47,460 nt of DNA from Gemmatimonadota bacterium (GTDB taxonomy: Bacteria > Gemmatimonadota > Gemmatimonadetes > JACCXV01 > JAHWKZ01). The notes beneath the pieces were generated by a model, which saw only the letters and a list, made by a program, of their open reading frames with translations, was not told the origin of the DNA and ran no database searches. Made by a program: the position numbers and the translations under genes. The stretch is from NCBI GenBank assembly GCA_035698825.1, contig DASSBK010000160.1, positions 1 to 47,460 of the forward strand. Reading direction: 5' to 3'. This document shows positions 5,092 through 17,062 of this stretch, piece after piece. Numbering within the stretch: the stretch's first letter is position 1; each line of letters opens with the position of its first letter.

Positions 5092-6291
5092 TCAGCTGTC
5101 GGGACGATCGCGGCGCCATTGTTCGAAGGTCCTGAACCCCACGCCGAGACGCAGGAACGACTCCTCGAGGCCGTGATCGTCCAGCGAGCCGCGCTGGCCG
5201 TATTCCACGACCACGTCCACTCCGCTCCGTCCGGCCGCGCCGAGAGTGCGACCGTACCCCAGGGATGCGACCCATTCCGTGACCGGGTCGCCATCGATCT
5301 CGAGCGGTAGCCGGCGCCATCGGTAGCCCAGCCGCAAGGGCGCCTGCGGGCCAAGAACCATCGCCCGCTCGACGGCCGAAGCGTATTCGATGCCACCGCC
5401 CACCTCGACCGCGTCCCCGAACCCGACGCTCTCGAGGCCCTCGAGGTCGAACGACGACCACGACGACCGGCGGTAGCCCGCGGTGGCGACGAGCCCCGGA
5501 GACGGCTGCCAGGCGGCGCCGAGGATGACCTCGCCCGGGAGGTCGAACTCCGATCGCACGCCCTCAAGAGCGTCGTCCGCGGCCTGCGTGATTTCGCTCT
5601 CGATCGTCGGGCGGTGCCGGTACGCCGCGCTCACGCGGACTTTCGGCCCGATGGCGCGCTCGAGCCCGACCGTGAATCCGATCCCTCCGAAGTCGCGCGA
5701 CAGGCTGTCGCTCGCCGCCAGAGCCCCCGCGCTCAGATCCTCGAGGTCCACCACGCGGACGATCTCGCGCGATCCGAGATAGAAGTCGGCGGATATGCCC
5801 ACCTGCGTCGCCGCGTCGAAGGAGTAGGCGACCGCGGGCGACAGCACGGACACGCCCCCCGTGGACTCCAGCTCCACGGGAATGCTGTCTCCCTCGAACT
5901 CCACCGTCGCTTCGAGATCGGTGTCGAAGTCGACGAACTGATAATACCCGACTCCGAACACGCTCCCCTCCCAGGCGGGGATCACGATCTGGGCCATCGG
6001 AAACATCACGTCCGTGAAGTCTCCGGTGGCGTCCTCGCCGTCGACGGTCACGTTCTGTCCGATGAGGGAGAGATACAGGCCGGCCCGCCGGAATCGCGCG
6101 ATCGGCGCCGGATTGGCCAGCGAGAAGACGTCGCCGGTCACTCCGCTCCCCGCGCCGCCCAGGGATCGGGAGCGGATCGTGGAGCCCTCCTCGGGGACGG
6201 CGAAGGCCGGCAGGTTGAACACGCTCTCCTGCGCGCGCCCGGCGGCGGGGACTGCGATCGCAACGAGGAGCAGCGGCAACCAGCGGGTCAC
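5092..6291 (-). CDS. Predicted beta-barrel outer-membrane protein
   Basis: GTG at 6291 (residue 58 of the track ORF) gives [22 protein letters not shown], a signal peptide. The rest has alternating amphipathic beta-strand character with Gly/aromatic-rich segments (GVGYYQF, VSAAYRH, ATAGYRR, LRLGYRW, LRLGVGF). The GTG overlaps the lipoprotein stop (GTGA). Family not resolved. Confidence 0.6.
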   Translation of the reverse strand: MTRWLPLLLVAIAVPAAGRAQESVFNLPAFAVPEEGSTIRSRSLGGAGSGVTGDVFSLANPAPIARFRRAGLYLSLIGQNVTVDGEDATGDFTDVMFPMAQIVIPAWEGSVFGVGYYQFVDFDTDLEATVEFEGDSIPVELESTGGVSVLSPAVAYSFDAATQVGISADFYLGSREIVRVVDLEDLSAGALAASDSLSRDFGGIGFTVGLERAIGPKVRVSAAYRHRPTIESEITQAADDALEGVRSEFDLPGEVILGAAWQPSPGLVATAGYRRSSWSSFDLEGLESVGFGDAVEVGGGIEYASAVERAMVLGPQAPLRLGYRWRRLPLEIDGDPVTEWVASLGYGRTLGAAGRSGVDVVVEYGQRGSLDDHGLEESFLRLGVGFRTFEQWRRDRPDS

Positions 6292-7544
6292 GGGGAATCC
6301 TCTCCAAGGCCCGGATCGGAGGGCGGGATATAGAGGAGCCGGATCCGGGGACGCACGTCCGCCGGCGCGTCGGGCCCGAAGAACCGCACCCCGCCGAAGA
6401 CACTCCGCTCGTCGAACATGGTGAGCGCGAATCCGAGCCGCGAATCGGGGTCGCGGATCCATTCCCGCACGAGCCGCGTCAAGGATGGGGACTCGAACGA
6501 CAGCGTGTCGCCGGAGGCGGCCCCCGGCGGCACCACCGCGGCGCCCAGGACCGTGGCGGGCGTGACCGAGCTGAGCACCGTCTTCTCGCCCACGAAGTCC
6601 GACAGCACCTGGCGCGCCAGGACCGTGAGGGTGTCGCCCGGCACCCGCGCTTCGTCGATCGTCAGGACGAGCCTCGCCGCGGCGATCGTCACCCCGTCAG
6701 GGATCGCGTCGATGTCCGGGTCGAGGAAGATCCTCCGCACGGGCTCCGCGCCGTTCACGACCAGCCCCCCGTCGGACGCCAGCGACGCCTCGTCGTCGAC
6801 GATGAAGACGTCCCCGATAGCCAGGATCGTGGCCGCCGCACCGGGGCCTGGAAACTCGACTTCGACGTCGAGAAGGGGGCCGTTCCGGTTCGTGCCCCCG
6901 ACGCCGCGGGAGGCGAAGGCGACCATCTCTCCGGGAGTCTGCTGGACGAGGATCACCCCATGGTTCTCGACCGCGCCGGAACGCCAGTCCGCGATCAGAT
7001 CGAGGGGGAAGTCGACCCGCACGGAGTCCGGTTGTCCGGGTCCGATCGTGATCTCCGCGATCGGTTCCGGGTCGAAGTCCCCGCCCGGCTGGGACCACGA
7101 GGCTCCCAGGAGTCGCCGCTCCCAGGTCGCCGCCTCCTCGTCCCACTCGCTCGTAACGCGGTGGACAGTGAAGGTCACCGGCGAGGCGGGCGTGGGACTG
7201 TACGTCAGCCGCAGTTGAGCTTCCACGACCTCCACGTCGACGGGCAGCGAATCGAACGCCTCGAAGCTGAACTGGAACAGTGCGCGGCTGGCGAATCCCG
7301 GGTCTTCAGGCCAGTCGAGCGCGGTGACGAGGCGCTCGCTCTCCGCGCGATCCGACGGAAAGATCTCGTAGTCCAGCGCGCGGCTGAAGTCCTTAAGTGC
7401 CAGGGACTGGACGCCCCCCGCCAGGATTCCGCCGGGGAGCAGCTCCACCCCGACGGGGCTGGCGCCGTCCTCCGAGCAGGCTGCGACGAAGAGCGCGGAT
7501 CCGAGAGCCAGCGCCCTCCATCGATGTGCCTGGACAAAGCTCAT
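6288..7544 (-). CDS. Lipoprotein with two DNRLRE-like beta-sandwich repeats
   Basis: Signal plus lipobox-like [46 protein letters not shown] and FASRG...[10 protein letters not shown] resemble the DNRLRE carbohydrate-binding-type domain, and a weaker second copy is present. The ATG overlaps the eutN-like stop (ATGA). Confidence 0.6.
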
Positions 7545-7828
7545 GTCGCGCGGGTCACCGCACCGCCGACGTCGTATTCGTCGACGATCGCCATGATGAC
7601 CGCATCTACGGGACGGCCGTCGGTGAGGGCGGTCTGCCGCGCGGATGAGCCGGTGGCGTAGAGCACCACCTCCCCGGCTCCGGCGCCGACCGCGTCGGCG
7701 GCCACCACGTACCCCTTCTCGTTCGCCATCTCGAGATCCAGGTTGCGCACGACGAGGAGCTTGAGGCCCTGAAGCTTCTCGTCCTTGCGGCTGGCCACTA
7801 CCGCGCCGATCACGCGACCCATCTTCAT
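7541..7828 (-). CDS. EutN/CcmL-family (BMC-P vertex pentamer) protein, orphan
   Basis: 95 aa: [31 protein letters not shown]...[13 protein letters not shown]...[12 protein letters not shown], typical EutN/CcmL length and sequence pattern. Residue counting places the ATG at 7828, overlapping the cdd stop (ATGA). The upstream part of the 185-aa track ORF is a shadow of cdd. Confidence 0.75.
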
Positions 7829-8223
7829 GGCTGCCCTTTCGTGAAGCGGAACGGATGGGGCAGGAGGCGATCGAGGGTGAACTCGTGTCTCGAGCCGTCG
7901 TCGGTGACGACGATCACCTCGAGCTCCGGGGCGAACTCCGCCAGCGCCTGCCGGCAGCTTCCGCAGGGATAGGGCTCGCTTCCCCCCGCCGTCACTACCA
8001 TCCTGCGAAACGATCGGACACCGGCGGAAACGGCGGCGAAGAGCGCGCTCCGCTCGGCGCAGCAGGTGACGGAGTAGGATGCGTTCTCGACATTGCATCC
8101 GGTGAAGACGCTTCCGTCGGCGGCTTCGAGAGCGGCGCCGACCGAATAGCCGGAATACGGAGCGTAGGCCCGCGCTCGCGCTTCGTTCGCCAGCGATTCG
8201 AGCGTCACGTGCGCTTCGCTCAC
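7825..8223 (-). CDS. cdd: Cytidine deaminase (homotetrameric type)
   Basis: 132 aa with the zinc motifs CAERSA and PCGSCRQ. The GTG start overlaps the DUF1844 stop (GTGA). Confidence 0.9.
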
Positions 8224-8696
8224 GGGCTCACCTTGAGGTACATCGTCCGCAGATGGTCCAGAGCCCGCCGGAGGTACTCCTGCTCGTCGGGCGGAAGGTT
8301 CCCCTGCGTCCGCTGCTCGACGATGCCGAGCAGATCGATCTCCCGCTTCGCCCAGCGGGGCAGCACCCGCCGCTCGCCTTCGGGTGTCAGAGGAAGCTCT
8401 CCGAGATACCGCAGGGCCTCCTCGATGTGCGGTCCGATGAGCTCGAGGAAGGACGGCTCCGGAGGATCCATCTGCGCCATCTGGTCCAGGTACGCGGCGA
8501 TCTCGTCCCCCGCGGATGGCGATCCAACCGAAGCGGGATCCGCGGTCGGTTCGGGCTCCGCGTCCGGAGGGGCGATCTCCACAGCCGGCGCTGCCGGCGC
8601 GTCGGACACGTCGGTAGGCGCCGCCGGTGCGGCGGGCTCCGCATCGGTCTCGTCGCGATGAGCCGACCTGCGCTCGCGGAATCTGCTCTCGGTCAT
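8220..8696 (-). CDS. DUF1844-like protein with an acidic Pro/Ala-rich N-terminus
   Basis: 158 aa. The C-terminal half ([18 protein letters not shown]...[36 protein letters not shown]) matches the DUF1844 pattern (..AK..ID.L..L..KT.GNL...E...L). The ATG overlaps the alr stop (ATGA). Confidence 0.65.
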
Positions 8697-9907
8697 CGAT
8701 CCTCCTCCAGCACGTTCCGGCGAACGCGGCGGCCGATCCCCGTCAAAATCGAGTACGCGATTCCGCCGGCGGCGGCGGCCACGTCTTCCGCGGACTGGCG
8801 GGCATCGTCCTGACGGCCGATGAGCGTCGCGATCTCCCCGGCCCGCAGATCTGGGAACGGCGTGGCGTCCACCATCGTCAGGTCCATGCAGACCGCTCCA
8901 CGGATCGGCGCGTAGCTACCGCGCAGGAGAACGCGGCCTCGATTCGACAGGGCGAGCGGCCACCCGTCCGCGTACCCCACACCCAGCAGCGCGATCCGCT
9001 CGGGCGCGCGGGCGACGTAGCTGCCGTGGTAGCTGACGGCGTCGCCGGGAGCCAATTCCTTGACCGCGACGACGCGGGCATGCCACGACAGCGCCGGCTC
9101 GAAAGGAGGAGGGCCCGGCCCTTCGGCTGCGCGCCATCGTCCGGCATCGTCGTCCGGCGCGATCTCCCCCGCGGCGCCGTACACGGCGATCCCGGGCCTC
9201 ACGAGGATCCGCGGAGACCCGCCCCGCGCGCCGAGCCTCGTCGCGCGCGCGAACCGGAGCGCGGCGGCGCTGTTGGCTGCATGCAGGCACTCCACCCGCA
9301 CGCCGCGCGTTTCGAGCTCGGCGAGCACCGCGTCGAACCGGTCGAGCTGTCGCTCCGTGGGGCCACGCCCCGCCTCGTCGGCGCTGGCGAAGTGGGTGAA
9401 GATACCGGCCACTCTGAGGCCGGGCAATTTCGCGACACGGGCGATCAGCTCGATTGCATCCCGATCCCAGGCGCCGGTGCGGCCCATGCCCGTGTCGACG
9501 TCCGCGTGCACCTCCATCGTGCGCCCGCGGGCCCGGGCCGCTGCGTCGAAGGCTTCGGCCTGCGCGATCGAAGTGATTCCCGGAACGACCGCGAGATCGA
9601 GCGCGCGCCCGGCCTCGGCGGGAAGGAGCGGCATCAGGCAGACGACCGGGTCGTCGAATCCCGCCTCGCGGAGCCGGGCCGCCTCGTCGAGCGCAGCCAC
9701 CGCGAACCCCCATACGCCGGCGGCACGCGCCGCCCGCGCTGCCGGCTCGATTCCATGCCCGTAGGCGTCGGCCTTCACCACCATGAGGACACCACACGAC
9801 TCCGGCAATCGCTCGCGGAGCGCGCGGACGTTTCGCGCGAGGACGCCGAGATCGACGTCGATCCAGGTCCGCGCGGTCGAATCGTCCAGAATGGGGGGCT
9901 CGATCAT
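8693..9907 (-). CDS. alr: Alanine racemase
   Basis: Start MIEPPIL at 9907 (residue 176 of the 579-aa track ORF, by residue count). Has the PLP-lysine motif VVKADAYGHG and the C-terminal YAPIRGAVCMDLTMVD beta-domain. Confidence 0.9.
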   Translation of the reverse strand: MIEPPILDDSTARTWIDVDLGVLARNVRALRERLPESCGVLMVVKADAYGHGIEPAARAARAAGVWGFAVAALDEAARLREAGFDDPVVCLMPLLPAEAGRALDLAVVPGITSIAQAEAFDAAARARGRTMEVHADVDTGMGRTGAWDRDAIELIARVAKLPGLRVAGIFTHFASADEAGRGPTERQLDRFDAVLAELETRGVRVECLHAANSAAALRFARATRLGARGGSPRILVRPGIAVYGAAGEIAPDDDAGRWRAAEGPGPPPFEPALSWHARVVAVKELAPGDAVSYHGSYVARAPERIALLGVGYADGWPLALSNRGRVLLRGSYAPIRGAVCMDLTMVDATPFPDLRAGEIATLIGRQDDARQSAEDVAAAAGGIAYSILTGIGRRVRRNVLEEDR

Positions 9908-12164: not shown

Positions 12165-13295
12165 TTGTCAATTCGATCCGCGATGGTCGCTCTCGCGTGC
12201 GCCGCGTCGCTCCTTTCGAAGCCCGCGCTCGCTCAGGATGACTCGCCGGGTGAGGGCGACGCACTCGTCCTCGACGCTTCACCGGTGATTCCCGTCGACC
12301 TCTCCCACCCCTGGGAGCAGGTCTGGAAGCTGGAGATCTCCCGCGGCGGATCCGCACCACTCGTGTGGGCCGATTCCCTGCTCCTCGTCGCGAGCCTCGA
12401 TCGGAACGTACACCTGGTGACCGTAGCGCCCGAGCCGCGCGTTCGCTTCAAGGAGAACTTCCGCGGGGGGTTCAGCGCCGCGCCGATCGTCACCACACGA
12501 CGGATCTACCTGCCCGAGCTCGAGACCGGCGGACGCCTGATCGCGCTCGACCGCTCGACGGGCGAGGCGGCGTGGGAAGCGGATGCGGGGGACCTGGCGA
12601 GCAGCCCCATCCTCGAAGGTGGCCGGATCTACACCGTTTCGACCCTCGGCGAAGTGAGGGCCTGGAGCGAAGAAGGCCTCGACCTGTGGTCGACCGACCT
12701 CGAGACGCGCGTCACCGCCCGCCCCGCTCTGCTCGGCGACGTGCTGGTCGTGGCGTCGACCGACGGGTTGCTCCACGCCGTGGACGCCGGCGACGGCACC
12801 GTCGTCGACACCTCCAATCCGGACGCGGGCCCGATCTGGGGCGACCCCGTCGTGGTGCAGGGTTCCGGCGGCGCGACCGCGGTCTTCGCCACGCTCGGCG
12901 GGCAGCTGCTGGAGGTAGGCCCCGACCTCGCCGTCGTCCGGCAGCGTTCCTTCCCGTCGCGGTTCTATTCCGGCCCCACGCGCGCGGGCGAGCGACTCTA
13001 CCTGGCGGGACACGAGGGTACGATCTGGTCCTACGACTGGATGGGAGACGCCATCGACTGGAGGCTGGACCTGGAGGACTCCACGGTGCGCATGGCGCCG
13101 GCCGTGGGGGACGATTACGTGGCCGTCGGAGACCTCGCGGGAACCCTCTTCGTGATCGACCGCGCGCGCGGCGACGAGCTCTGGTCCACGCGTCTCGACG
13201 GCGCACTCACGTCCACCCCGCTATTGCGCGGCGACGAGCTGTACGTAATGACCGAGAACGGAACCCTCTACGCCTTCCACCCGATCGCGCCCTAA
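12165..13295 (+). CDS. PQQ-like beta-propeller repeat protein (BamB-like fold)
   Basis: 376 aa with a signal sequence and repeated ...G.l.A.D...G...W... blades (LIALDRSTGEAAWE, LHAVDAGDGTV, LFVIDRARGDELWS, LYAFHP). TTG start at 12165 lies 6 nt after GGAGG; ATG at 12183 is an alternative. Confidence 0.75.
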   Translation: MSIRSAMVALACAASLLSKPALAQDDSPGEGDALVLDASPVIPVDLSHPWEQVWKLEISRGGSAPLVWADSLLLVASLDRNVHLVTVAPEPRVRFKENFRGGFSAAPIVTTRRIYLPELETGGRLIALDRSTGEAAWEADAGDLASSPILEGGRIYTVSTLGEVRAWSEEGLDLWSTDLETRVTARPALLGDVLVVASTDGLLHAVDAGDGTVVDTSNPDAGPIWGDPVVVQGSGGATAVFATLGGQLLEVGPDLAVVRQRSFPSRFYSGPTRAGERLYLAGHEGTIWSYDWMGDAIDWRLDLEDSTVRMAPAVGDDYVAVGDLAGTLFVIDRARGDELWSTRLDGALTSTPLLRGDELYVMTENGTLYAFHPIAP

Positions 13296-13304
13296 CCCTC
13301 TAAA

Positions 13305-13424
13305 GGGCGCTCAAAACGGCCCAGATGCAAGGCGCGCGAGGAGTCCGTTCCGAGGCGTGGTGAATCCCACGCCGCAGGAACGGCGACGAAGCGCAACGCC
13401 GCAGATGCGCCGTTTTCAGCGCCC
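13305..13424. repeat. Long-hairpin palindromic element, copy A
   Basis: The 16-nt terminal arms GGGCGCTCAAAACGGC and GCCGTTTTCAGCGCCC pair at 15 of 16 positions. Inner stems are GTCCGTTCC / GGAACGG.GAC and an apical GGCGTGG-tgaatc-CCACGCC (13354-13373). It lies between convergent genes. Confidence 0.8.
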
Positions 13425-13429
13425 GCAGA

Positions 13430-13548
13430 GGGCCTTCAAAACGGCTCGGATGCAAGGCGGGCGACGAGAGGAGTCCGAGGCGTACGATCTGTACGCCGCA
13501 GGACGACACGAAGAGCCCAACGCAGCAGACGAGCCGTTTTCAAGGCCC
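13430..13548. repeat. Long-hairpin palindromic element, copy B (tandem with A, 5-nt spacer)
   Basis: Arms GGGCCTTCAAAACGGC and GCCGTTTTCAAGGCCC keep the same 15/16 pairing and the same C-C mismatch. The apical hairpin is GGCGTAC-gatct-GTACGCC (13479-13497). Shared blocks with copy A include GATGCAAGGCG, AGGAGTCCG and CGCCGCAGGA. Confidence 0.8.
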
Positions 13549-13550
13549 GA

Positions 13551-16490
13551 CTAGTAGTTGTAGCCGATGAAGAAACTGTAGTGGGACTGATCACGCCCGT
13601 CGGGGAACAGCTCGCGCTTGTCCTCGACTTCGAAGCGCCGCGCCCAGTCGAACCGCACGACGAACGGGCCCCCCAGCGGGTAGCGGATCGAGGCGCCGTA
13701 GCTCCCCAGCAGGCCGGCCCAGTTGTCCAGCTCATGAAGCTCCCCGTCCGACCCCTCGTACAGGCCGTCTGCCGTCCATGCGTTGCCCACGTCGACGAAG
13801 AGCCCTCCCCAGATCCCGTTGGCGAGCAGGATCGCGGGCCCGCTGAGATTGTAGTTCGGGCGCAGGATCGGGAAACGCCACTCCTGGTTCAGGAGCACGC
13901 TGTAGGTCCCGCTCAGGATCCAGCTCGGATAGCCGCGCAGGGATGCCGGCCCGCCCAGGTAGTAGAACGTCGGCACGTCGCCGCTCGCGAACCGGCCGCG
14001 CGCGCGCACCGCATACGTCGTGTTCAGCGAGGTGCGGAAGTACTTGCGAGCGTCGACCAGGACGTCGGTCGACTCCAGCGTCCCCTCGGAGGCATTCAAC
14101 ACCGAGCTGAGCGTCACGTTCACGCGCTGCCCGTCGACCGGCCCTACGGGACCCCACAGCGAGTTGTCGTAGACGTACCCCAGCGAGCCGATCGTCAGCC
14201 ACGCATCCCGCAGGAAGAGGTCCTCGATGTCATCGAGATCGTTGGGCAGCTCGGTCAGGTTGTTGCGTTCGAAGGCCAGCTCGGTCTCGACCCGCTGGAA
14301 CTTCGAGATCGGATAACTGAGCAGGCCGGTCGCCCCCCAGCGCTCCTCGAAGAAGTCGTTCCGGATGCCGATGCCCTCCTGCCCCAGGCCCGGCCCGCCG
14401 AACTCCGTCCCCAGGAGCGACGCGAAAAACGAGCGATAACGGTAGGCCCCGACTCCCCAGTTCAGCCGCTTCTTCAGGTTGATGTACGTGAGCGCGCCGG
14501 TGAAGCCGGAGAGGATGTTCGTGCGCCCCTGCTGGGCATTGACCTGCGCCACGATCAGGTGATCGCCCATCAGGTCGGAGAAGAACATCTGGGCGCCCTG
14601 GCCGCGGGTGCCGTCCTCGGCGAAGGCGAGCGCGCCGGACGCGAAGTCGAGGCCGAACTCCCGCTCGTAGTCGCGCTGGACGTACTGCCCCGCTTCCGGC
14701 AGGATATCCTCCCACTGCCAGTCGGGTACCTCCGGATCGACGGACAGCGCCACGGTCTCGGGGATTCCGGTGGGGATATCCACGCGGTAGATCTGGTAGG
14801 ACTGGTTCTCGAAGGCGCTGAAGACGGCCTGGTCGCGGCCCTCCAGCCGCACCCAGCGTGGGTGCATCGTCCCGGCTGAGTACGTAGACGCGCGGAAGCC
14901 GGTCCCCTGGCGGTCGACGACATACAGGTCGAGCGTCCCGGAGCGGTCGGAGGCGAACAGGATGTGACTCCCGTCGGGGGACCAGTCAGGATCACGGTCC
15001 ACCCAGCGCCCGAACGTCAGTGGCTGGATACGCCGGCTGCCGACCTCGAACAAGTACAGGTTCCTCGCCCCCTCCGGCCCGAACGGCGTGCGGTCCGACG
15101 CGAACACGATCGTCTCGCCGGTGGGCGACCACCGCGGTGCCGTTTCCAGATACCGGTCGTTCGTGAGGCGATCGAGCCGATCCGTGACGATGTCCCACAC
15201 GTAGAGATCGGCGTAACCGGCCCGCGACAAGCCCGCGAACACCAGCCGCCGGTTGTCCGGCGCCCACGAGGGCGACGACAGGACGACAATGTCTTTCCAG
15301 CGGCGCTCATGCTCGCGATCCCCGGACCGCAGGTCCGCCACGTACAGGACGTCGGACGCCCCCGCCTTGGCGACGAACGCGATCCGGCCCTCGCGGTTCA
15401 CGTCGATCGTCGAGAGCAGCGGGTGGAACGTCTCGTAGTCGCCCGAGCGACCGGCGGTCACGACGGTTTCCAGGTCCTCGTCGACACCGGTCAGGTCGGC
15501 GGTTCCGATCGTCGCATAACCCGAGCGGAGCGTCAGGTAGCTGAGCGCCGGCTCGTCGCCGAGCACGCCCGCGGGCACCACCGCGGGAGTGAAATTGAGC
15601 CGGCCCTCGGTCACGACCGGGGTGGCGGTGGTTCCCGCGGGAAGCTCCCCGGCGAGTTGCGGGAAATACCGCTGGCGCAGGTGCGTCTTCCACTCGCCGT
15701 TCGCCTCCGCGAGCGTGATTCCGTAGACCTTCCGGAAGGCGGTAGAGAAGTTCTTGTACTTCCACTCGCTCTCGAGGAGCTCGACCACACGCTCCTCACC
15801 GTAGCGCACCTTGAGGAACTCGAACGCCTCCTGCCCCAGCTTGTAGATCGCGAAGGAGCCGGCGAACTTGTCGAGCTCCTGGAGATCCGGGACGAGCCCG
15901 TTCAGCAGCAGGTCGCGAACCACGAGATCGCCTTCCGCGTTCCATGGCCCCGACCAGAACTCCGCCAGGCCCTCGGTGAACCACAGCGGTGAGTTCCACT
16001 CGTAGCCGCCGGGGTGCACGCGCTTGAGGTGCCCGCCCTTCCGTGCCTGGAAGACGTGCACGAGCTCGTGGCGGATCACGTGCCGGAAGTCCGCGTAGCT
16101 GCCGTTGAACGGCAGCGCCACGCGCCCCTTGAGGAATTCGGTGAAGCCGGCCACGCCCTCGGGCAGGAAGAACGGAACGATGTTGGTCTGCTCGAAGTGC
16201 TGGTGGCTGGCGAACACCACCATCGGGATCCGCTCCTGGGGAACGTAGGAGAACTTGCGGCTGAGGAAATCGAAGCTCTCCTCCGCATAATCGATGGCGA
16301 TCAGCGCCAGCTCCCGCTCGTCCGGATAGAAGTAGAGGTCGACGTGCTCGGACGAGAGCACCTCCCAGTCGAAGTCCTCGTACTGGATCTTGTTCTTTCC
16401 GAAGGTCGAGTACTGAGCCGAGACCGGAGCTGCGGCGAGGAACAGGACGGCGAGAAGGATCGGAATGGAGCGAGCCGGAAGGAGGTGCAC
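13551..16490 (-). CDS. Tri-domain outer-membrane protein: MA-clan metallopeptidase-like domain, TolB-type (PD40) beta-propeller repeats and an Omp85/surface-antigen beta-barrel
   Basis: GTG at 16490 (residue 52 of the track ORF), 6 nt after GGAG, gives VHLLPARSIPILLAVLFLAAAPVSAQ as a signal. HExxH is present (VIRHELVHVFQ), then FTEGLAEFWS. PD40-type repeats: WAPDNRRLVFAG, PRWSPTGETIVFASDR, PDWSPDGSHILFASDRSG. The C-terminal ~380 aa is barrel-like and ends FFIGYNY. Confidence 0.8.
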   Translation of the reverse strand: MHLLPARSIPILLAVLFLAAAPVSAQYSTFGKNKIQYEDFDWEVLSSEHVDLYFYPDERELALIAIDYAEESFDFLSRKFSYVPQERIPMVVFASHQHFEQTNIVPFFLPEGVAGFTEFLKGRVALPFNGSYADFRHVIRHELVHVFQARKGGHLKRVHPGGYEWNSPLWFTEGLAEFWSGPWNAEGDLVVRDLLLNGLVPDLQELDKFAGSFAIYKLGQEAFEFLKVRYGEERVVELLESEWKYKNFSTAFRKVYGITLAEANGEWKTHLRQRYFPQLAGELPAGTTATPVVTEGRLNFTPAVVPAGVLGDEPALSYLTLRSGYATIGTADLTGVDEDLETVVTAGRSGDYETFHPLLSTIDVNREGRIAFVAKAGASDVLYVADLRSGDREHERRWKDIVVLSSPSWAPDNRRLVFAGLSRAGYADLYVWDIVTDRLDRLTNDRYLETAPRWSPTGETIVFASDRTPFGPEGARNLYLFEVGSRRIQPLTFGRWVDRDPDWSPDGSHILFASDRSGTLDLYVVDRQGTGFRASTYSAGTMHPRWVRLEGRDQAVFSAFENQSYQIYRVDIPTGIPETVALSVDPEVPDWQWEDILPEAGQYVQRDYEREFGLDFASGALAFAEDGTRGQGAQMFFSDLMGDHLIVAQVNAQQGRTNILSGFTGALTYINLKKRLNWGVGAYRYRSFFASLLGTEFGGPGLGQEGIGIRNDFFEERWGATGLLSYPISKFQRVETELAFERNNLTELPNDLDDIEDLFLRDAWLTIGSLGYVYDNSLWGPVGPVDGQRVNVTLSSVLNASEGTLESTDVLVDARKYFRTSLNTTYAVRARGRFASGDVPTFYYLGGPASLRGYPSWILSGTYSVLLNQEWRFPILRPNYNLSGPAILLANGIWGGLFVDVGNAWTADGLYEGSDGELHELDNWAGLLGSYGASIRYPLGGPFVVRFDWARRFEVEDKRELFPDGRDQSHYSFFIGYNY

Positions 16491-16555
16491 GCAGATCTCC
16501 TGCCTGAAGGTCGGGCTGGCGCCCGTAAGTATGGGCTTGCGCCCGCGCGGCGAGC

Positions 16556-16576
16556 AAGAAACGGGGGTGAGCCCCG
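16556..16576 (-). terminator. Weak candidate intrinsic terminator ending the long minus-strand array
   Basis: Minus strand reads CGGGG-ctcac-CCCCG followed by TTTCTT, about 40 nt downstream of the thioesterase stop. The stem is short (5 bp). Confidence 0.3.
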
Positions 16577-16615
16577 GGACCCCGAAGGCCAAACGCCGCA
16601 CCGCCAACGGACGGT

Positions 16616-17062
16616 TTATTCGCGCCGCCTGTCCCCCGCCCACTGGCCCGGTCCGCGCTCCAGGGCCTTCGCGATCTCGGCGGGGATCCTGCGGGGACGA
16701 CGCTCCCCATCGAGCGCGATCAGCACGGTCTCCCCCGTCGCCAGCGGGCGTCCACCGGCCTCCAGCTCGTAACCGAAGGCGACGCTGCGGCTGCGGACGG
16801 CGATGACGCGGGTCGCGATCTCCACCCGCTCGCCGTACCGGGCCGCCCCCGCGTAGCGACAGCGCGCCTCCATCACGGAGAACAGGGCGCCCTCGGCCTC
16901 CATCCGGTGGTAGGGAAAGCCGAGCGCCTCGAGGTAGCGGGTGCGGCCGATCTCCATCCAGACGAAGTAGTTGGCGTGATAGGCGACGCCCTGCTGGTCG
17001 GTCTCGGCGTAGCGGACCTCGACCTCCGCCACGACCGCGTCGCCCCGCACGTCGCCGGTCAC
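16616..17062 (-). CDS. Acyl-CoA thioesterase, hotdog fold (YbgC/4HBT family)
   Basis: Only the 3' 148 codons of the 947-aa track ORF look real: VEVRYAETDQQGVAYHANYFVWMEIGRTRYLEALG... The GTG at 17062 overlaps the upstream stop (GTGA); GTG at 17050 is an alternative. Confidence 0.8.
   Translation of the reverse strand: MTGDVRGDAVVAEVEVRYAETDQQGVAYHANYFVWMEIGRTRYLEALGFPYHRMEAEGALFSVMEARCRYAGAARYGERVEIATRVIAVRSRSVAFGYELEAGGRPLATGETVLIALDGERRPRRIPAEIAKALERGPGQWAGDRRRE

Follow-up and report, generated by a model that had tools for sequence, protein, structure and literature searches.

REP (repetitive extragenic palindromic) sequences are said to be mobilized by RAYT transposases (Y1 HUH enzymes), as Nunvar reportedly described in 2010. 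REPINs form hairpins in single-stranded DNA or in mRNA, accumulate compensatory changes, contain blocks about 71 nt apart, and have a 5′ single-stranded tail on their excised form (Bertels and Rainey 2011; PMC3116915), and REPIN populations are described as lineage-specific and vertically inherited. In Escherichia coli, REPs crowd around stop codons, 260 of 496 lying within 15 nt of one (PMC12306157), and they can themselves supply TAG stops (Di Nocera 2013; PMC3733652). ERIC/IRU, YPAL, Correia/NEMIS, and RUP elements have been reviewed by Delihas (2008; PMC2229807). Here we report that two tandem hairpins, copies A and B, at positions 13305–13548 of a contig from a Gemmatimonadota bacterium (DASSBK010000160.1, assembly GCA_035698825.1; the whole stretch of 47,460 nucleotides that was analyzed is referred to as the window) are members of a real, very widespread, and previously undescribed family of repeats. 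The family is closest in kind to REP, REPIN, and ERIC elements and departs from them in its architecture, in the breadth of phyla that it spans, in its strand asymmetry with respect to the neighboring gene, and in the precision with which it abuts the ends of genes.

An earlier note on this DNA, prepared from the letters alone, had set the two hairpins down as a palindromic repeat family that it did not recognize, either a structured RNA or a REP/MITE-like element (MITE, miniature inverted-repeat transposable element). That judgment has held up, and the choice between the two alternatives, RNA or mobile DNA, can now be resolved in part. The features of the locus are as follows, where R1 is a covariance model built from 30 copies of the family and the model orientation, or model strand, is that of the + strand of the window.

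13305–13424, + strand: copy A, 120 nt; the strand favored for folding is the + strand of the window; included in alignment A1; its own + match to R1 is masked by a 3-nt overlap with copy B
13324–13334, + strand: 5′ core motif GATGCAAGGCG of copy A, which contributes one half of the tandem G·A pairs and the AA bulge
13395–13405, + strand: 3′ core motif AACGCCGCAGA of copy A, conserved
13425–13429, + strand: 5-nt spacer GCAGA between the copies, which fits the family's weakly conserved 5′ flank, GCRRA/CGNAGG
13430–13548, + strand: copy B, 119 nt; outer stem GGGCCT/AGGCCC; R1 score of 135 bits on the + strand
13449–13459, + strand: 5′ core motif GATGCAAGGCG of copy B, conserved
13519–13529, + strand: 3′ core motif of copy B, which here reads AACGCAGCAGA, a variant
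12165–13295, + strand: gene for a BamB-like PQQ beta-propeller protein, convergent; its stop lies 9 nt before copy A
13551–16643, − strand: PD40/Omp85 (BamA/TamA-family) gene, whose product is called as 979 aa in public assemblies

Each copy folds end to end as a single hairpin, as had been proposed, with a minimum free energy as RNA of −74.0 kcal/mol for copy A (z = −7.7) and −68.7 kcal/mol for copy B (z = −8.8), values that none of 200 shuffled sequences equaled. The calculation was made for both strands, as the earlier note had recommended; the reverse strands of A and B fold about as well as the + strands. A repeat search returned the two copies as direct repeats, about 80% identical and 125 nt apart, each with inverted arms of 24 nt. 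The paired differences between the copies were likewise correctly read. In copy A the outer stem is GGGCGC/GCGCCC and the basal stem is TCAAAACGGC/GCCGTTTTCA, including a C–C mismatch (in TCAAAAC/GTTTTCA) that is common to both copies; in copy B the outer stem has changed on both arms. The middle stem is GCGC/GCGC in A and GGGC/GCCC in B, the apical stem is GGCGTGG/CCACGCC in A and GGCGTAC/GTACGCC in B, and the loops differ (TGAATC in A, GATCT in B). One description needed amending: the segment GTTCC/GGAAC was said to be present in A and absent from B, which is roughly right in that A has CCGTTCC/GGAACGG where B has GTCC/GGAC, but this is not a simple loss of 5 nt from B, which has other extra bases. 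Also as described, the copies lie between convergent genes, and the TAG stop codon of the Omp85 gene (13551–13553) is 2 nt off the base of copy B. The window has a G+C content of 69.7% and recurs in several soil metagenomes at 99–100% identity, and we found no further copy of the family within its 47 kb besides A and B. The pattern at 13305–13548 is far beyond chance, and the same architecture is found in more than 150 other copies.

Those copies came from scans of genomes and metagenomes. When one genome per species was scanned with the 5′ arm TCAAAACGGCNNNGATGCAAGGCG as the query, 37 loci were returned. Most are in metagenome-assembled genomes (MAGs) of Gemmatimonadota, several fragmentary bins having 5–8 exact-pattern matches each; others are in Methylomirabilota/NC10/Rokubacteria, including one contig of 2.7 Mb, and one MAG is labeled Sulfotelmatobacter, an Acidobacteriota label. 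Application of R1 to the flanks of the genome loci brought out about 10 more copies in 280 kb. About 45 copies are counted in these genomes, and the flank copies, which had not been picked by the search pattern, still have GATGCAAGGCG ... AACGCNGCAGAT. A second flank search yielded about 11 extra copies in 560 kb of flanking DNA. The extras from flanking DNA suggest that carrier genomes hold roughly one copy per 30–50 kb. Meanwhile, a metagenome scan anchored on the core only (GATGCAAGGCG, 55–85 nt, AACGCCGCAGA) recovered at least 126 loci, on more than 120 contigs, whose origins include sediments, soils, wetlands, and sludge; the basal stems of these loci belong to many unrelated sequence types, all of them complementary. 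The further copies that the earlier note had thought worth seeking are therefore present in large numbers and in several phyla, with about 70 nt of near-invariant sequence in common.

The family appears to be new. The comparison with Rfam 15 that had been suggested gave no match at E ≤ 10 on either strand of 13305–13548, no match at E ≤ 1 for the elements of nine loci of other subtypes, and none at the gathering score on the whole window, where there was no tRNA match either. Blastn against the PLSDB plasmids gave no match, and a search of the literature by sequence words and keywords found no description of the repeat family. A first scan of viral sequences used too loose a pattern; 80 of the 86 stretches that it reported were rescanned with R1, and two, on IMG/VR viral contigs (L097:1575–1682 and L108:4164–4291), were real. 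The name of the first of these contigs includes a genome-type taxon id. Its copy has kept the core, and its basal tracts are of reversed polarity (CCCTTTTCGGG ... CCCGAAAAGG), so that it cannot be a U-tailed terminator. A candidate from a rumen MAG (L025) was set aside because it looks like a chance or remnant match. In the contig binned as Sulfotelmatobacter (L024:1874–5756), four copies in mixed orientation occur in 5.8 kb, after kdsC, metK, ahcY, and an open reading frame (ORF) of 168 aa, a density far above the family average.

The pairing potential of the hairpin has been conserved throughout the family. Standard pairs occupy 96.8% of the paired cells in an alignment of 39 genome copies (A2) and 92.8% in an alignment of 108 metagenome copies (A3), as compared with 83% and 75%, respectively, after shuffling and with 34–40% and 35–43% when the partner was slid by 1–3 columns. 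Changes on both sides are seen at 21 of 36 pairs in A2 and at 32 of 36 in A3, so that the covariation, for which the earlier note had proposed a test, is very strong. Paired substitutions are also found between orthologous copies, for example L027/L034 and L014/L031.

The two strands are not equivalent in this respect. Isolated mismatches on the model strand of the basal stem, which was left unconstrained by the core-anchored search pattern, are G·T or T·G in 84 cases and A·C or C·A in 8. Over all helices the count is 213 G·U to 35 A·C, with G·U occurring at 20 different pairs. The model strand is more stable than its complement in 130 of 141 distinct copies, with a mean difference of −8.9 kcal/mol under RNA parameters and −3.3 kcal/mol under DNA parameters. 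To our knowledge, no mutational bias gives a tenfold asymmetry of this G·U/A·C kind, and conversion within the palindrome, which the earlier note had raised as a way of keeping arms complementary, cannot explain a wobble bias on one strand. Since one-sided wobble goes beyond what mutational bias or such conversion would leave behind, we conclude that one particular single strand, RNA or DNA, must fold. The hairpin is under selection, and on one strand only.

The folded strand has a characteristic anatomy. The basal stem is about 21 bp long; its outer 6–10 bp are freely variable yet paired, and its inner part usually has an A5 tract in the 5′ arm and a U5 tract in the 3′ arm, with a conserved C–C mismatch at position 12. 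Above it lies a near-invariant, asymmetric core in which GAUGC-AA-GGCG stands opposite CGCC-GCAGAU and which, by inspection, pairs as A–U, tandem G·A/A·G, three Watson–Crick pairs, a bulged AA, and GGCG/CGCC. For the spacing between the core anchors, all values from 80 to 84 nt occur. The middle helix is variable, as is the loop of the apical hairpin, in which the motif RRGGCG...CGCCGCAG is repeated. At the 5′ end is a short, subtype-specific, unpaired extension; in what we call the long form, this extension repeats the 5′ half of the basal stem in direct orientation and adds a mini A/U hairpin. Deletion variants have the basal module only (L006, L029, L007:4881, and L016:2500), and insertion variants have an extra hairpin, GGGTACCCACCGAAGGTGGGT, on either arm (L024, L028, L133, and L164). 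A second small module, the hairpin GGGTACCCACC-GAAG/GCAG-GGTGGGT, is inserted in either arm at L024:3334–3510, L028:589–735, L133:4585–4734, and L164:2169–2315 and looks like a nested mini-element with its own distribution. At L037:3230–3420, near a contig end, the 5′ half of the element occurs twice, at a distance of 150 nt, and a different 3′ part continues each occurrence, an arrangement that may represent a tandemly amplified or recombined variant.

Three other interpretations of this anatomy were rejected. A coding role was discounted in that the conserved ATG in GATGCAAGGCG opens short frames only and lengths vary by 1-nt steps; a kink-turn or C/D-box reading of the tandem G·A pairs was discounted in that the sequence lacks the geometry of a 3-nt bulge; and the outer stem is not a copied target sequence, as the same stems recur at unrelated loci.

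The A5 and U5 tracts bring to mind ordinary bidirectional intrinsic terminators between convergent genes, which would be alike merely as GC-rich hairpins with A/T tracts. This resemblance, which the earlier note had remarked upon, is real: the tracts are conserved, the layout of A tract, GC-rich hairpin, and T tract is present in both copies, with a U tract on both strands, and the copies are located at gene ends. As a sufficient account, however, it fails. Terminators of the ordinary kind would not have a long conserved sequence and internal loops in common in different phyla, nor a strand asymmetry; a scan for consensus terminators finds none at 13305–13548; the U run here is only 4 nt long and lies inside the stem; a covarying helix lies outside the U tract; several subtypes lack a U tract; and one subtype has the reversed A/T polarity. 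The conservation of sequence effectively refutes ordinary terminators as a full explanation, which we consider highly improbable, although termination as a side effect is possible.

Comparison of the junction between the Omp85 and BamB-like genes in relatives revealed the following (percentages are identities of the Omp85 gene or protein to that of the window).

Window, 100%: two direct copies
L250, 95% (protein), the closest relative: no copy; an unrelated 554-nt spacer at L250:4438–4991
L251, 92% (protein): inverted copies, one beside each gene, with a remnant between
L023, about 85% (DNA): one copy and a 3′ remnant
L252, 85% (protein): one copy
L253, 83% (protein): a 23-nt remnant
L254, 81% (protein): empty, the stop codons of the two genes being 7 nt apart
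L256, 68% (protein): two inverted copies, each of which abuts the stop of its own gene

A small ORF may be present in the spacer of L250. In a relative with 70% identity (L255:5446–5799) the BamB-like neighbor has been replaced, and an ORF with an IS481-type helix-turn-helix (LZ_Tnp_IS481) is found about 1 kb downstream of the Omp85 gene. One metagenome contig (L245:1–1418) is 99.9% identical to the window as far as position 12811, which falls within the BamB-like gene, and beyond that point the two diverge completely; the break is either an assembly chimera or a strain rearrangement.

Gain and loss of this sort might be the work of a classical DDE-type MITE, that is, a deletion derivative of an insertion sequence that is cut and pasted by way of terminal inverted repeats. 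The size of 100–150 bp, the inverted repeats at the ends, and the multiple intergenic copies with insertion and deletion variants are as a MITE would have them. But no target-site duplication of 2–8 nt was found at any boundary offset, direct repeats being no more numerous than in partner-shuffled controls; the termini are the least conserved part of the element and covary rather than being fixed; no longer element with the same ends was found among the loci examined, and no transposase in about 1 Mb around the copies; and a wobble bias on one strand is unexpected of a double-stranded DNA substrate. We therefore regard a DDE-type MITE as very unlikely. The REP/MITE-like label of the earlier note stands for a dispersed palindromic repeat and falls for a classical MITE that makes target-site duplications. 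ERIC/IRU-type elements, too, are imperfect palindromes of about 100–150 bp with one long stem-loop, intergenic placement, and internal insertion and deletion variants; they are co-transcribed with their neighbors, and ERIC is reported to have orientation-dependent effects on the upstream mRNA. These elements, however, have TA or other target-site duplications and conserved terminal inverted repeats, whereas the present family has no duplication and variable termini; no sequence relation between them is established, and they belong to different phyla.

A second conspicuous property of the family is its placement with respect to genes. All copies are intergenic. On the 3′ side of the model strand, an opposite-strand ORF of 120 codons or more has its stop no more than 90 nt from the core in 78 of 115 copies, and 42 of these 78 stops fall 19–22 nt from the core (mode, 21 nt), which is the end of the 21-bp stem. 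(Distances were anchored on the core, gapless extension of the stem having been smeared by the C–C mismatch.) The 78 stop codons are TGA in 33 cases, TAG in 29, and TAA in 16. Distances on the 5′ side are broad (13–83 nt), with only a small cluster, which matches the long form. Some ORFs enter the element and end at an internal TGA, as does the BamB-like gene in L251. Short spacers, such as the 7-nt empty site, explain some of the abutments but not all; between metK and ahcY in L024, 65 nt lie beyond the element. The genes on either side are housekeeping genes whose synteny is conserved (metK, ahcY, asnS, Omp85, tRNA). At L010:3400–3775 there are two tandem tRNA-Met(CAT) genes, and the outer stem begins right after the 3′ end (3653) of the second. 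We considered whether the stop codon might belong to the element and rejected this, as the flanks are diverse in copies that have no ORF on that side.

The orientation of the element follows that of the gene. Among co-directional neighbors, antisense placement of the folding strand outnumbers sense placement by 35 cases to 11, and in the first set the ratio of antisense to sense was 22 to 4. GC skew, meanwhile, follows the orientation of the element only weakly (48:33), which indicates that orientation tracks the neighboring gene rather than replication; we rejected a replication-linked orientation because the weak skew signal is explicable by gene orientation.

A hairpin antisense to the gene that it abuts recalls the attC sites of integrons, which are defined by structure and variable in sequence, measure 57–141 nt, and are active as the single strand antisense to the upstream ORF. 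By analogy, a tyrosine recombinase, either an integron-type integrase or one that is Xer-like, would recognize the copies as single-stranded hairpins, and the gene next to a copy would behave as a cassette. Like attC sites, they start at or within a few nucleotides of a stop codon, have conserved unpaired, extrahelical bases in an otherwise variable stem, vary in apical structure and length, and lack target-site duplications. The RYYYAAC/GTTRRRY boxes at the base of the hairpin (the R and L box consensus) were not found, however, the bases being subtype-specific (CAGGCTGC, GATGGTTTCG, GGAGCCTG, and others); the neighbors are core genes in conserved synteny; the copies are dispersed in mixed orientation and form no arrays; and there is no intI/attI context, the ORFs in about 1 Mb around the copies including no recurrent integrase. 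We give the attC analogy hardly any credence. Against each of the attC-like, DDE-type MITE, and plain-terminator readings stands at least one defining feature that was tested.

A more serious competitor, which we hold to be possible if rather doubtful, is that the element is a cis-acting structured RNA. A transcript of the folding strand would be a protein-bound or intrinsic terminator, or an insulator, that stops convergent or antisense transcription before it enters the gene, with the version on the sense strand kept deliberately weak so as to spare operon transcription and translation termination, and with copies spread by duplication or recombination. Much of the evidence presented above is congenial to this idea. 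G·U is tolerated on one strand at 20 pairs, in the series C–G, U–G, U–A that is typical of RNA helices; the mean advantage of the folding strand is −8.9 kcal/mol when computed with RNA parameters; the tandem G·A pairs are accompanied by a conserved bulge; the A5/U5 tracts are conserved and fixed in polarity; orientation tracks gene direction rather than GC skew; and the core is conserved across phyla. The main weakness of the RNA reading is that 35 of the 93 copies with both flanks readable have no gene on the folding strand that ends within 90 nt upstream, and so have nothing obvious to transcribe that strand; nor is there a conserved promoter at a fixed distance. In addition, the outermost helix, which lies 3′ of the U tract and would be excluded from a terminated RNA, still covaries, the subtypes without a U tract or with reversed polarity are hard to accommodate, and the loss, gain, and inversion of copies among close relatives is a poor fit to a locus-specific function.

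The account that we favor, at about an even chance, makes the element a REP/REPIN-like mobile hairpin that is non-autonomous, its movement probably taking place as single-stranded DNA and depending on an enzyme whose gene lies elsewhere; a role as terminator or insulator would be secondary. We place it among repeats of the REP/REPIN/ERIC type because of its high copy number, its rapid gain, loss, and decay, its insertion and deletion variants, the location of its conserved, recognition-like core in a freely covarying hairpin, its lack of a target-site duplication, and its 5′ tail. Only the strand with GATGCAAGGCG is kept foldable. The folded single strand, most likely DNA with a short 5′ tail, would be the substrate of an enzyme supplied in trans, for which the best candidate would be an HUH/Y1 transposase of the RAYT or IS200 kind. 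It would copy or move the element and leave no target-site duplication, as HUH-type transposition leads one to expect. Copies persist at the 3′ ends of genes, and for the most part it is the weaker-folding strand that enters the sense mRNA of the gene they abut. The reason, presumably, is that a strongly folding sense strand would act as a polar terminator or block at the stop codon and be less well tolerated. As a by-product, the element would probably terminate or insulate transcription between neighboring genes, a side effect that the conserved A5 and U5 tracts suggest.

The resemblance to REPs and REPINs is extensive. It includes many dispersed extragenic copies (5–8 per fragmentary MAG), hairpins of about 100 nt with two conserved blocks about 70 nt apart and a spacer whose pairing is kept by compensatory changes, a 5′ single-stranded tail, the lack of a target-site duplication, clusters, decayed remnants, and placement near stop codons. 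The core also resembles the Y-type REP of E. coli (GGATAAGGCG...CGCCGCATCC as compared with GGATGCAAGGCG...CGCCGCAGATGG). In the flanks of rayT in E. coli K-12 (L038:7460–7495 and 8195–8335), a Y-type REP of the form GTAGGCCGGATAAGGCG-loop-CGCCGCATCCGGC is like the core save for two symmetric 2-nt insertions; there, the TAG stop of yafL lies within the GTAG tag of the REP. We take the likeness of the core to the Y-type REP as a lead, not a test.

Several observations weigh against our favored account of a mobile hairpin. The family has neither a doublet of short REP palindromes nor a fixed GTAG/CGTC tag: its halves pair with each other by way of an asymmetric loop rather than being two self-palindromic REPs of 20–40 nt, and the TAG beside the stem belongs to the neighbor as its stop codon, TGA or TAA standing in its place elsewhere. 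The RAYT link that is typical of REPs was not seen: a tblastn search with E. coli RayT and a search for the HUH...Y...NP pattern turned up neither a RAYT nor a Y1 transposase in the roughly 1 Mb surrounding some 170 copies, where about one or two hits would be expected on the assumption of one RAYT locus per genome. Nor was any recurrent protein family found beside the copies in this DNA, clustering of ORFs having given generic GGDEF and ABC families only. The model for IS608 puts the active strand on the lagging-strand template, which for genes co-oriented with replication means their sense strand. The folding strand of the present family runs antisense to the gene that it abuts, the opposite of that expectation, and its orientation follows gene direction (35:11) better than it does GC skew (48:33). 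No known choice of target at the DNA level explains abutment at 0–2 nt to all three stop codons and to the end of a tRNA gene, and copies without an ORF on that side have no fixed flank. A core that is near-identical across phyla is unusual for REPIN populations. Finally, G·U pairs that are frequent and spread over many positions, together with the tandem G·A pairs, look RNA-like, and a functional RNA would account at least equally well for the abundance of G·U and for the cross-phylum core.

These same observations leave some room, though we judge it unlikely, for a view in which the repeat is not selfish DNA at all. It might be a widespread, strand-specific module for the ends of genes, with a core bound by a conserved host factor and acting either as an RNA that shields gene 3′ ends from antisense or convergent transcription or as a DNA hairpin in the template strand that affects transcription or topology there; or it might be the substrate of a novel single-strand transposition system, common to the phyla in question, that finds gene ends, both stop codons and the 3′ end of a tRNA gene.

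Finally, we note that the stretch of the window from 5100 to 9000, downstream of the Asn/Asp-tRNA synthetase gene, includes genes called in the same organism as MazG, alanine racemase, a DUF1844 protein, a cytidine/dCMP deaminase, and a microcompartment vertex protein of the EutN/CcmL type.

As a frequent and unannotated repeat in high-GC MAGs, the element will break assemblies, seed false ORFs, and confuse the prediction of terminators. Current models of REPs and MITEs leave unexplained both the strict foldability of one strand, antisense to the gene that it abuts, and the near-zero distance to stop codons. If the family is indeed REPIN-like, then replicators of this kind reach beyond the Proteobacteria, where they have been studied, into the Gemmatimonadota, the Methylomirabilota, probably the Acidobacteriota, and many uncultured lineages of sediment and soil, and a recognition core conserved across phyla could serve to find the enzyme that mobilizes them.

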